Virus record (IMG/VR): IMGVR_UViG_2609459852_000013
DNA length: 39,105 nt
Direction: 5' to 3' (one strand)
Source: a virus
Taxonomy: Duplodnaviria; Heunggongvirae; Uroviricota; Caudoviricetes
Positions 12,001-15,000 of the stretch are shown in pieces (the stretch's first letter is position 1; each line of letters begins with the position of its first letter). A program made the position numbers.

Positions 12001-15000
12001 ACTGGCTGTTACGCCACATTAAATCCTGCCAGTGGCCTCATGGTGACTACCATCACAGCGAAACCGTCATACATCGTTACGGTACCGGTGCAATGGTGTT
12101 GTGCTGGCACTGCGACAACCAGCTGCGTGACCAGACTTCCGAATCACTCGAGCAACTTGCTCATCAAAACCTGTCAGCATGGATGATTGACGTCATACGC
12201 CATGCAATGAATGGCACGCAGGAGCGCGAATTATCGCTGGCTGAATTATCCTGGTGGGCGGTCTGCAATCAGGTGGCGGACGCGCTACCAGAGGCAGCAT
12301 TACGTCGTTCTCTGGGGTTACGTGCGGAAAAAATTCGCTCAGTATACCGCGAGAGCGACATCGTGCCGGGAGAGCAGAGTGCCACCAGCATGCTGAAGCA
12401 GCGCACAAAAAATATTGCGCCGCTGCTTCACGCCCACCAGCAAACCCCGCCACAGGAAAAGACGGTGGTCAGCATTGCCGTTGAGCCGGAGTCTCCGGAA
12501 TCTTTCATGAAACGACCTAAACGTCGCCGCTGGCTTAACGAGAAATACACGCGCTGGGTTAAGACACAGCCGTGTGCATGTTGTGGAAAGCCTGCTGATG
12601 ATCCCCACCACTTGATAGGCCACGGTCAGGGTGGAATGGGTACTAAAGCGCATGACCTCTTTGTGTTGCCTTTGTGCAGAAAACATCACGACGAGCTGCA
12701 TGCGGATACCGTGGCATTTGAAGAGAAGTATGGCTCCCAGCTGGAGCTGATATTTCGTTTTATCGATCGTGCGCTGGCAATAGGCGTATTGGTGTAAGTG
12801 GAGAACGAGCATGAACCTTGAAGCCTTACCAAAATATTACTCCCCAAAATCTCCAAAATTGAGCGATGACGCACCGGCGACAGGCTCGGGGGGTTTAACA
12901 ATTACGGATGTGATGGCTGCGCAGGGGATGGTGCAGTCGAAAGCACCGCTTGGGTTTGCCTTATTCCTGGCAAAAGTTGGTGTTCAGGATACTCAGTTTG
13001 CTATTGAAGGTCTGCTCAATTACGCGATGGCACTGGATAACCCGACATTGAACAAATTGAGTGAAGAAACCCGGTTACAGATCATCCCTTACCTTGTGAA
13101 TTTTGCCTTTGCTGATTATTCCAGATCTGTGGCAAGTAAGGCTTGCTGTGGGCATTGTGCAGGTACGGGATTTCATCATGTATTATGTGAAGTGGTGAAA
13201 TATTCCAGTGGTGGGGACACTGTCATCAAAGAAGAGTGGGAGAAGAAACTATGTCAGCATTGTAATGGCAAGGGAAAAGTCAGCACAGCGTGCAGAGGGT
13301 GTAAGGGTAAAGGCATTGCCCTAGATGAAAAAAGAACCCGATTTCATGGTACACCAGTTTATAAGGTCTGTGGGCGTTGTAATGGACATCGGTTTAGCCG
13401 TTTACCGACCACGCTGGCACGACGTTATGTCCAGAAGCTGGTTCCCGGTTTAACTGATTATCAGTGGTACAAAGGATATGCAGATGTCATTGATAAACTG
13501 GTAACAAAGTGCTGGCAGGAAGAATCGTACGCTGAGACCCAGCTGAGAAAAGTGACGAGATAAATGATTTTCGCGGAAGATGTCTACATGATGCTTGCAT
13601 TTTTCACAAAACATGGATAGAGTTATCTCAATAAGGGGGGTGTGTGCCTGCCGTTAAAGGGGGCTTCGACCTGCGATAATTAAAGGTACAGTTCTGGATG
13701 AAAAAGCCCCGACTTCATGGTAAGCCAGTTTGCAAGATTTGCAGGCGTTGTAATGGAAAGGAGTTAGCCGTTTACTGGCCACGCTGATGTGGCTGCATAT
13801 CCAGGAGTTGGTAACAGATAAGGCTGATTAGATAATTCTTTGCTACATAACAGCAAGGCATCATATAGAATATTATAACTTTGACTGTTAGCATGGATTA
13901 TACCCGCTTCCCTTGTTGGCCTTCCTTCTGTCGATGATTCTATCCATAATGAACCAGTAAATTTTGACATTTTATATGTTGCGAATTCTTTGGCGTTAAC
14001 TGGAATTTTTATGTCATTTAAGTCCATTGTGTATCCATCTTTTTTTATTTTATTGGCAAAGCAAATCTTTATATCGGAGATTGATGCATCGACACTTATC
14101 TGTGAATAGCTATCTGGTGAATTAAAGATAAACAAACAAAAAAATAACATATGAAAAAACAATTTCACAAATGCCTTCCTGTTTTGTAAATATATTGCTA
14201 AGTTTCTTGGTGATTTATATGTTACAAGGCAAGAGATGTTGCTGGATGATAAAAAAATAACAGTAAGGTTATTTGTGGTTGGCGGGCTGTCTTTGTTTGG
14301 TTAGATTTAGCTCTGGATACCGATAGTTAACATTATATGCCATAATTAGTATTGTATGCGGATATTGTATAATGGTTATTACCTCAGTTTCCCAGACTGA
14401 TGATGTGGGTTCGATTCCCGCTATCCGCTCAGGGCACTTATCAAGGTATATATACCTTACAGCGCTGGCGTTTTTTTTCGCGGGGATGGTTTCAGATATC
14501 TCATTGCTCCCTCGAACTATAACAGAGACCAGTTATAGTTTCAGCGCGGTTTTTTTCAATATAAGGATGGCGCATTGTTGGAAGAGAGTTTCGGGAATTA
14601 TCCTGGAGAGACAGATGATGCGCCATCCTTATGTTGTATAAAAATGTGAGATAAGCCGAAGAGCAGGACTGTCAGGTATACATATAAATAGACGAAAGCT
14701 GTAACGTATTTATTCGTTGATTAATATGTCTACAAAAGACATCCGATATCTCGAATTCTATTTAATACGTTGAGTGCTATTTGAGTTTTTACCGCCCTCC
14801 CGGGCGGTTTTTTTGTGAGCTTAAAAAAGAATTGCACATTGGATTTGTAAATAATCTAATGTTGTTTAACAAAAGATGAAAGCAGCGCTTGACTCTATTG
14901 AATTAGTATTGTTATTTCAACTATATCAATGTGTTCAGGTTGTTGCGAGAAACTATGGTTGATAAAGAATTACTCAGAAATTCTTCATTGTTTGTTGCGT

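Follow-up and report, generated by a model that had tools for sequence, protein, structure and literature searches.

A short stretch of DNA resembling part of the antiterminator gene Q lies just downstream of an intact Q gene in a Caudoviricetes prophage (IMG/VR record IMGVR_UViG_2609459852_000013), between a late promoter and foreign cargo. The locus raises the questions of where this second, degenerate copy came from, how it reached its place and whether it has any activity. We examined it within the whole 39,105-nucleotide stretch, here called the window. The relic is most likely a routine recombination leftover of mosaic phage genomes, with no activity of its own. The features to which we refer are as follows.

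12811..13563, plus strand: resident Q antiterminator gene, intact, 250 aa, of the YdfT/SfV-Q subfamily, a lambda-Q relative
13003..13144: crossover interval in the resident Q gene, with the common SfV-type allele upstream and a rare allele downstream
13595..13623, plus strand: predicted pR' equivalent (TTGCAT 13595..13600, 17-nt spacer, TAGAGT 13618..13623)
13630..13638, plus strand: positional equivalent of lambda's sigma70-dependent pause element, reading AATAAG GGG, 6 nt past the -10 as in lambda
13656..13680: left joint (J1), comprising the end of the conserved pR' leader and then about 24 nt of no assigned origin, the tR' of relatives being gone
13681..13830, plus strand: Q remnant, a decayed internal fragment (Q codons 167-213/217), solid to 13818 and ambiguous over 13819-13830
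13764..14168, minus strand: moron gene for a predicted small secreted protein of 134 aa (hypothetical protein WP_064745597.1 in RefSeq)
13831..15579: AT-rich block of cargo specific to this prophage lineage, with the moron gene, tRNA-Gly(CCC) and gene fragments
14358..14430: tRNA-Gly(CCC)
14791..14818, plus strand: first strong intrinsic terminator after pR' (ACCGCCCTCCCGGGCGGT then TTTTTTT)

The resident Q gene and the Q-like segment

The resident Q protein matches Pfam Antiterm (PF03589) in two stretches at 1.5e-51, with a sub-threshold Pfam match to the DnaJ CXXCXGXG domain, and matches the lambda Q entries 7UBM (3.5e-37) and 4MO1 (4.7e-24) in the PDB. It contains four CXXC(X)G(X)G repeats, one of which is spanned by the relic. 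Its gene is about 92% identical in nucleotide sequence to the Q genes of SfV, mEp460 and Stx2c phages, and is chimeric. Mismatches with SfV step up from 8 of 320 positions (2.5%) in 12811-13130 to 57 of 433 (13.2%) in 13131-13563 (Fisher p = 6e-8; the ratios for control pairs of alleles were 0.7-1.6), evidence that a crossover did occur inside Q, as an event distinct from the relic. The rare 3' allele is found at 99% identity or more in only 18 of 5426 E. coli genomes, other matching records being 80-90% identical, and is always accompanied by the fragment and the moron gene.

The relic aligns colinearly with Q: 13681..13818, with a weak extension to 13830, pairs with 13308..13448 (13460), at 76% identity over 109 columns or 71% over 153. 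Local alignment of 13681..13786 with Q 13308..13416 scored 88, against 20.4 +/- 2.35 (maximum 30) for 300 mononucleotide shuffles, placing the relic some 29 SD above the null. Softer scoring aligned 13681..13830 with 13308..13460, with identity in 109 of 153 columns, three gaps of 1 nt and a score of 60.5 (shuffles 11.7 +/- 1.5). The similarity of about 100 bp that the initial annotation had noticed by eye (13694..13793 to 13321..13423) is therefore real, has the same 373-nt offset in both sets of coordinates, and extends further. In a blastn search of 11751..13680 against the whole window, the relic was the sole secondary match (76.1% over 109 columns, E = 6e-15). Q genes recorded for phages and E. 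coli align with 13681..13818/13830 at 71-78%, independently of the resident gene. Over 138-153 nt this level of nucleotide identity holds for Q genes of phages, E. coli and other Escherichia, all of the Antiterm (PF03589) YdfT/SfV family, and significant colinear similarity was to Q genes only.

The segment had been described as the 3' end of Q. Because the match covers codons 167-213/217 of a 250-codon gene, it is an internal piece, and no counterpart of the remaining Q sequence, including the last 34-38 codons, was found elsewhere in the window. In place of a complete reading frame of about 250 codons with start and stop, the relic has only these codons; it carries three 1-nt deletions, has no start and has stops in all frames. 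A TTGC-N5-TTGC motif within it was considered as a CII-type site and dropped, such sites requiring N6 spacing and nothing else being in its support.

Late promoter, joints and cargo

The coordinates first given for a candidate promoter behind Q proved exact, and its tentative identification as pR' can be strengthened. Its position and hexamers are kept in SfV, 720R4, Salmonella phage 118970_sal3 (sal3) and the sister prophage L016, and it aligns with lambda pR' (TTGACT...TAAATT) in a common geometry of -10, 6 nt, AAYRAT and GGG; the identity of the lambda elements in this comparison we take to be established knowledge. By these sequence features it is very probably the pR' of this prophage. 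The pause hexamer and following triplet are AACGAT GGG in SfV, 720R4 and sal3, as in lambda. Such -10-like pause hexamers are defined by A at position 2 and T at position 6. The window's AATAAG has lost the T at hexamer position 6, and sibling copies read AATAAT or AACAAT, with this T present, or AACAAG.

Past the leader, SfV, 720R4 and sal3 continue with AACCCGCCGCTGAGCGGGTTTTTTT, annotated in SfV as a rho-independent terminator. This tR' hairpin and T-run is absent from the window, and a hairpin-plus-T-run scan found no credible plus-strand terminator within 13624-14358. A weaker plus-strand candidate lies near 14470, ahead of the strong terminator at 14791..14818, and a minus-strand hairpin at 13728..13709 is weakly terminator-like. 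Altogether, five terminator-like sites were found in the region against 3.1 +/- 1.7 expected by chance.

Homology with SfV, 720R4 and sal3 stops at about 13656-13658, and more than 2400 E. coli Q loci lose their match at query position 516 (window 13655). On the right, homology breaks at 13831, exactly where the cargo homologue of L016 starts. A possible extension of cargo homology at 13816-13830 overlaps the 3' border of the relic, so the right joint (J2) is placed only to about 15 nt. Because homology is lost abruptly on both sides (13655-13658 and 13831), the relic marks a mosaic junction at the classic Q-to-lysis moron site, and the first description of it as a degenerate Q-derived fragment at such a junction stands.

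The cargo block, 13831..~15579, has properties expected of a moron, being extra DNA, absent from close relatives and deviant in composition. GC content is 28-41% over 13800-15100 vs 45-58% upstream, the block is present in 18 of the 5426 E. coli genomes, SfV-type phages are without it, and common E. coli homology returns at 15580. No phage match was found in 13620-14400 beyond the Q-derived stretch, and no plasmid match in 13831-14972.

The overlap of the relic with the 3' end of the minus-strand gene, another point of the first description, is also real. The moron reading frame takes its last 17-21 codons and its stop codon (13764..13830) from relic antisense, the gene having lost its own stop so that reading continues into the relic for that distance. 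Relatives of the protein (106-128 aa) end 3-6 residues past a conserved C-x3-L-S, where the window protein goes on with QPYLLPTPGYAATSAWPVNG. In its AF2 model residues 20-113 have pLDDT >87 and residues 118-134 <50. Since the last ~20 residues are antisense Q relic, the 134-aa product should not be annotated at face value. Searches of Pfam and PHROG gave it no match, nor did any PDB fold match it at E < 1e-3. A word-indexed search had made it appear an orphan, a view overturned by exhaustive HMMER searching, which found a small family. There is no consensus minus-strand promoter just upstream of 14168.

The sister prophage (L016/L017) has the same order of Q, pR', moron gene and tRNA-Gly, and the same flanks, without the relic. 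Its leader is SfV-like and is followed by a different spacer that contains no Q-like sequence; the corresponding L016 segment is about as long as the window's (roughly 172-174 nt). Comparison with related prophages, proposed at the outset as a means of finding the junction and the parental Q alleles, thus supplied a relic-free sister and the junction, and no parental allele. It does not bear out the suggestion that the cargo was gained by recombination within Q-like sequence: L016 and L017 hold the moron gene without it, and the relic's borders look like illegitimate joints, because homologous recombination within Q would yield a hybrid Q. What would be expected of such recombination is a hybrid gene, not an intact Q and promoter followed by a separate fragment.

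Origin of the relic

The relic had been taken for a duplicate of the resident gene. Its identity with the resident Q is 72%, that with the SfV, sal3 and F9792 alleles 76-78%, and 24 of 149 sites are peculiar to the relic. At 14 sites it agrees with the allele consensus against the resident Q, and at eight with the resident Q against the consensus; gene conversion between relic and resident Q was rejected on this count (eight shared-derived sites vs 14 opposing). The frameshift-corrected relic peptide is 63-65% identical to Escherichia alleles. No parental sequence emerged: the best DNA allele is 78% identical, none of 17 Q alleles from other species exceeds 75% nucleotide identity to the relic, and the corrected 51-aa peptide had no candidate parent among 5.8 billion proteins searched. 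A subfamily of 273-aa Q proteins (L018) was rejected as parent at only 34% amino acid identity.

An exact 29-mer of the relic had no match in GTDB species representatives and five in IMG/VR, and a 24-mer had four in metagenomes, all at the same locus. The 34 copies of the fragment (18 genomes, 5 IMG/VR contigs, 4 + 2 metagenome contigs) share one context at 97.8-100% identity, and since all belong to one closely related lineage, their conservation cannot separate drift from constraint. P0002, which had seemed a different context, was rejected as the same locus with frameshifts. A Q-like relic downstream of Q was found at none of 17 loci from other species.

Constraint on the relic appears relaxed. 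Its differences fall 13/7/15 over the three codon positions vs 5/3/18 in functional alleles. By the NG86 method its dN is 0.18-0.25, 3-4 times that of functional allele pairs, and its dN/dS 0.32-0.41, from a small sample of 46 codons; functional Q pairs have dN <= 0.08 and dN/dS <= 0.17, with the one exception of HSP60-F9792 (0.34, resting on six differences). Over these 46 codons the relic thus lacks the purifying selection typical of functional Q alleles. Its dS (0.47-0.67) exceeds dN, so part of the divergence predates inactivation.

We think it likely that the relic is a dead fragment of Q, from another allele of the YdfT/SfV subfamily, that was stranded between two illegitimate joints and persists as an inert scar. 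The starting point would have been either a stack of two Q modules or a defective prophage carrying a truncated Q. Stacked modules have a precedent, since the same prophage holds a second, unrelated Q gene at 8747..9283, and mosaics of temperate phages arise readily through recombination with defective prophages (PMC3945230). Deletion or illegitimate recombination would then have left only codons 167-213, with J1 (~13656-13680) coupling the relic to the pR' leader at about +27 and removing tR', and J2 (~13818-13831) coupling it to the 3' end of the AT-rich moron cassette of reverse secreted-protein gene and tRNA-Gly. Unselected drift would have followed, producing the three frameshifts and the excess of non-synonymous change. 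In a later step, homologous recombination of the usual kind, crossing over within Q near 13003-13144, would have attached the block of rare Q 3' half, pR', relic and moron to a lambdoid backbone common in E. coli. The effects of the relic today would be passive: it sits in the place of tR' and gives the moron reading frame its last 17-21 codons and stop. We infer this route, since neither parental allele nor intermediate was found. The lack of function is argued from absent signals, and a divergence of ~23-28% is much for neutral DNA surviving in a phage genome.

Short-patch ectopic copying, by template switch or gene conversion, of ~140 nt of a co-resident prophage's Q into an L016-like spacer, with decay thereafter, is an unlikely alternative. 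It would likewise have replaced tR' and left an inert scar. Up to four YdfT-type Q loci occur per E. coli genome, both flanks are common to L016, and the near-equal length of the replaced segment would suit a patch; against this, no close donor allele was found, J1 has no evident microhomology and the 24 nt at 13657-13680 would go unexplained.

Recent tandem duplication of the resident gene's own 3' part, degenerating in place, is decidedly unlikely. The relic does have the orientation and subfamily of Q, begins 118 nt past its stop and shares the eight sites noted above with the resident allele. Six other alleles (74-77%) are nonetheless nearer to it than the resident Q (72%), the 14 opposing sites point elsewhere, and pS between relic and resident Q (0.44) is no smaller than that separating different classes of functional alleles. 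Moreover, the relic is internal to Q, and the promoter and leader stand between the two copies.

That the relic has been kept for a function, its antisense strand in the 3' end of the moron mRNA acting as a trans anti-Q RNA or as the moron terminator, is extremely doubtful on analysis of the available signals. Because the moron reading frame runs into it, relic antisense is probably transcribed, perfect 14-nt and 12-nt matches to the resident Q persist (GGCGTTGTAATGGA, TTAGCCGTTTAC), and the minus-strand hairpin at 13728..13709 is weakly terminator-like. Yet nothing indicates that relic and resident Q have co-evolved, the relic being closer to other alleles; the RNA fold is unremarkable (z = +0.35 on the plus strand, -1.42 on the minus), with no RNA family match in Rfam; terminator-like sites are near the chance number; the T-run derives from lysine codons of Q itself; and the sister prophage works without the relic. 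The wider proposal that the segment is non-neutral, the late promoter and moron gene cross-regulating through convergent transcription or a trans anti-Q RNA, is likewise very improbable. Were it true, replacement of tR' would turn a short pR' leader into a 0.85-1.2 kb transcript running antisense through the moron gene and on through tRNA-Gly to the first terminator, and the moron mRNA would end in an anti-Q-like sequence with the 14-nt and 12-nt matches, a trans-encoded analogue of lambda paQ, which is an antisense RNA.

Chance similarity, or convergence on an unrelated CXXCXGXG zinc-finger coding motif, is negligible, for although the relic spans one such repeat, it is colinear with Q over 138-153 nt including non-motif parts, at ~29 SD above shuffles, all database matches fall at the same Q position and the other Q repeats give no comparable match.

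Comparison with known systems

The relic is a recombination scar of a known kind, and a routine example of it. Comparisons of HK97, HK022 and HK620 have revealed partial-gene relics at module boundaries, the 'novel joints' of mosaic lambdoid phages and of defective prophages. Like these, the window relic is what is left, truncated and non-coding, of a conserved phage gene, with homology breaks on both sides and a compositionally foreign moron adjoining. Unlike them, it duplicates the family of the intact gene immediately upstream, lies inside a late-promoter leader in place of tR', and contributes its antisense strand to the end of the moron coding sequence. Taken alone it is of little consequence, a further worked example of lambdoid prophage assembly. 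A single kilobase here (1 kb) records three layers of history: a homologous crossover in Q, an older pair of illegitimate joints that left a piece of another Q allele behind, and the incorporation of this dead DNA into the end of a moron's coding sequence.

The Q-pR'-pause-tR' (6S RNA) module of lambda is matched in having a lambda-Q relative and, just past Q, a promoter with lambda-like spacing to the GGG, and the relatives of this prophage keep a nearby terminator. The window differs in having no tR', its first strong plus-strand terminator being ~1.2 kb downstream and past tRNA-Gly, in its pause hexamer AATAAG, and in a resident Q of 250 aa with an extra zinc-finger-rich insert vs 207 aa for lambda Q. 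With tR' missing and the pause hexamer variable, control of the late genes in this O166:H15-associated prophage may depart from the textbook lambda scheme, and altered late control could affect inducibility. Literature searches on ydfT/Qin antitermination and on O166 H15 genomes yielded nothing of use.

In the Qin prophage of E. coli K-12, ydfU-ydfT likewise comprises a DUF968 gene and then a 250-aa Q, at 85-92% nucleotide identity; the 1.2 kb downstream of ydfT carries cspF/cspB cargo and, among annotated features, no Q fragment. In Stx and other lambdoid phages the moron site between Q and the lysis genes comprises Q, pR', the tRNA genes ileZ-argN-argO and cargo such as stx. The window resembles it in its tRNA genes and foreign cargo, with an ileZ/argN/argO-like cluster at 15580..15829. 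It differs in that the cargo combines tRNA-Gly(CCC) with a reverse gene whose small secreted product belongs to a family without a name, and includes no toxin, and in the Q relic as an extra feature.

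The Q gene and the fragment behind it

The resident Q gene encodes an antiterminator matching Pfam Antiterm (PF03589, 1.5e-51, in two stretches) and the lambda Q structures 7UBM and 4MO1 in the PDB; the Pfam model DnaJ CXXCXGXG also matches, below threshold. The gene shares ~92% DNA identity with Q of SfV, mEp460 and Stx2c phages; ydfT of the K-12 Qin prophage is its counterpart. The features discussed are:

12811..13563, plus strand: resident Q gene, ORF for a 250-aa protein
13595..13600 (TTGCAT), 17 nt, 13618..13623 (TAGAGT), plus strand: pR'-like promoter, conserved in relatives
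13764..14168, minus strand: moron gene, for a small secreted protein
14791..14818, plus strand: first strong intrinsic terminator, 3' of tRNA-Gly

The initial annotation described a degenerate duplicate of Q's own 3' end downstream of Q. A Q-like relic is indeed present: local alignment of 13681..13786 with 13308..13416 scores 88, against 20.4 +/- 2.35 for shuffled sequences, which refutes chance similarity, and the 373-nt offset first noted by eye recurs in our re-alignment. Softer scoring extends the match to 13681..13830 versus 13308..13460 (109 of 153 columns identical, three 1-nt gaps). It is the sole secondary match of the Q region in the whole 39-kb window, and independent Q genes from phage and E. 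coli records match the same stretch at 71-78%. The relic comes from the interior of Q and does not include the 3' end: it covers codons 167-213, possibly to 217, out of 250, lacking the first 166 and last 34-38, and carries three frameshifts with stops in all frames.

Nor is it a duplicate of resident Q. Across 153 nt the relic is 72% identical to resident Q and 74-77% identical to six other alleles; 24 of 149 comparable sites are unique to it, and it sides with the consensus of the other alleles against resident Q at 14 sites, the reverse holding at eight. Recent self-duplication of resident Q is disfavoured, since these allele distances speak against it. Differences by codon position are 13/7/15 for the relic and 5/3/18 for functional alleles. 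By the Nei-Gojobori method on 46 codons, with wide standard errors, functional allele pairs have dN of at most 0.08 and dN/dS of at most 0.17 in all but one; comparing the relic with any allele gives dN 0.18-0.25 and dS 0.47-0.67 (ratio 0.32-0.41). These patterns suggest that the relic descends from a different allele within the same Q subfamily, which would make dS exceed dN, and then drifted without constraint, which would produce the excess dN and the frameshifts. A parental allele was not found: in a comparison with 17 Q loci of other species, Escherichia-type alleles were still the nearest (72-75% nt, 63-65% aa) and no locus of the 17 had a Q-like relic after Q, and a search with the frameshift-corrected relic peptide returned no candidate parent.

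Probably, then, the relic is an inert scar of another allele's Q. Two illegitimate joints would have left only codons 167-213 of that gene, connecting them on one side with the working Q module's pR' leader and on the other with the moron end, and the fragment would then have decayed. A stacked-module ancestor is plausible because the prophage today holds a second, unrelated Q gene (PF06530, 8747..9283). Homology, borders, decay, linkage and the sister arrangement are observed; the sequence of events and the absence of function we infer. Short-patch ectopic copying of Q sequence would give the same outcome, and we think it improbable.

Recombination within Q and the sister loci

The initial annotation also placed recombination within Q-like sequence, at the relic. 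Recombination within Q stands, at another site. Mismatches to SfV-type alleles rise from 2.5% in the 5' 320 nt of resident Q (12811-13130) to 13.2% in the 3' 433 nt (13131-13563; Fisher p = 6e-8), a step absent from control pairs of diverged Q alleles (ratios 0.7-1.6). The rare 3' allele and leader are at least 99% identical in just 18 E. coli genomes, those with relic and moron; in more than 2400 further records identity is 80-90%. By this mismatch step and linkage, resident Q is a chimera in which a crossover near 13003-13144 joined a block (rare Q 3' half, pR', relic and moron) to a common backbone. The relic would be an older component of this block.

Gain of the cargo through the relic is not supported by two sister prophage loci (L016 and L017), which have a 64%-identical homologue of the moron protein (P0003) in the same order as here: DUF968 gene, 250-aa Q, pR', spacer, reverse moron gene, tRNA-Gly. 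Homology to the window covers Q and pR' at 89.5% up to 13637 and restarts from exactly 13831 at 74% (tRNA, 96%); the 183-nt sister spacer contains no Q-like sequence and its leader is SfV-like. Another family member (P0005) is likewise located between Q and the lysis genes of a prophage. Moron family members thus recur here with no need of a Q relic, and the relic-bearing segment is confined to a single lineage; every other copy found (5 IMG/VR contigs, 4 + 2 metagenome contigs) shares this context and is 97.8-100% identical.

Mosaic lambdoid phages are already known to have gene relics at their module borders, and recombination with defective prophages is on record (PMC3945230). This fresh example is mildly unusual in lying within the pR' leader where tR' would be, in having its antisense strand recruited as a moron coding tail, and in adjoining an intact paralogue.

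The pR' leader and the moron block

The proposed sigma-70 promoter is very probably pR': TTGCAT-17-TAGAGT is kept in L016, SfV, 720R4 and Salmonella phage 118970_sal3, and aligns with lambda pR', sharing its layout of -10, 6 nt, then hexamer and GGG. From established knowledge of lambda Q, we take promoter and hexamer to be a lambda-type late promoter with its sigma70-dependent pause element. Lambda and SfV-type phages have AACGAT GGG after the -10, whereas the window hexamer (13630..13635) is AATAAG; siblings within the lineage have AATAAT, AACAAT or AACAAG. With this final G the hexamer has no T at position 6, a loss that might impair Q loading; alternatively, the G may stem from an error of sequencing or assembly beside the G-run.

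Homology to relatives ends at ~13656, where SfV, 720R4 and sal3 have a GC hairpin and T-run, a terminator by SfV annotation. The window lacks this tR', and no credible plus-strand intrinsic terminator was found in 13624-14358. With the first strong one at 14791..14818, a pR' transcript would therefore cross the moron gene (antisense) and tRNA-Gly(CCC), unless stopped by Rho. A regulatory antisense or terminator role of the relic lacks support, and it is very improbable that pR' and moron regulate each other through it as a trans anti-Q RNA.

The moron block is AT-rich (28-41% GC from ~13831 onward) and occurs in 18 of 5426 complete E. coli genomes, O166:H15 strains among them; common E. coli homology is back from 15580. 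No phage match was found in 13620-14400 outside the Q-derived stretch, and no plasmid match in 13831-14972. The moron gene seemed an orphan in a word-indexed search; exhaustive HMMER placed it in a small, unnamed family of short secreted proteins (106-134 aa) with two conserved Cys and the motif GS(L/F)WIE..TEGRP. At least three members lie in Q-to-lysis intervals of prophages (the window, L016, L017, and L018, a locus with a 273-aa Q subfamily). The moron product matched nothing in Pfam or PHROG and no PDB fold at E < 1e-3, the best weak matches being DUF302 and Francisella Flpp3.

The relic overlaps the 3' end of this gene, as the initial annotation had it. Six of seven relatives stop 3-6 residues past a conserved C-x3-L-S motif; the window protein has ~20 residues more, QPYLLPTPGYAATSAWPVNG, coded by the antisense strand of the relic. 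Its AF2 model is confident at residues 20-113, with pLDDT < 50 at 118-134. The gene's original stop codon was therefore lost at the joint or close to it, and the frame runs on into dead Q sequence. The L016 TAG may align with a window TAT, the joint position being uncertain by ~15 nt.

Neighbouring features

The PF06530 gene belongs to another Q family and is situated 3.5 kb upstream of the YdfT-type Q. Two genes in reverse orientation (DUF6731 and a hypothetical) come after it. It sits in a 2.8-kb segment (8172..10961) in place of which siblings have a different 2.1-kb nin-like segment without Q. Between the two Q modules is a hok/sok type I toxin-antitoxin (10978..11153 and ~11150..11310; sok RNA, 119.8 bits), for which the matching RefSeq record annotates hokD.

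Fragments of a DNA methyltransferase gene (~15150..15420), intact in SfV-type phages, precede a tRNA cluster at 15580..15829 similar to ileZ-argN-argO of Stx phages: a CAT-anticodon tRNA, then a weak and perhaps degenerate tRNA-Arg(TCG) in the middle (23.5 bits), then tRNA-Arg(TCT). The next stretch, 15844..16497, contains a TerB/tciA-like gene (16005..16430) and shares 95% identity with a record titled Actinobacillus phage vB_Apl-pPE4; such a host is unexpected for E. coli-like prophage DNA. An Escherichia-type DUF968-Q locus, its Q 88% identical in amino acids to that of the window, occurs on a contig that is labelled a Veillonella parvula MAG and is probably a binning contaminant.
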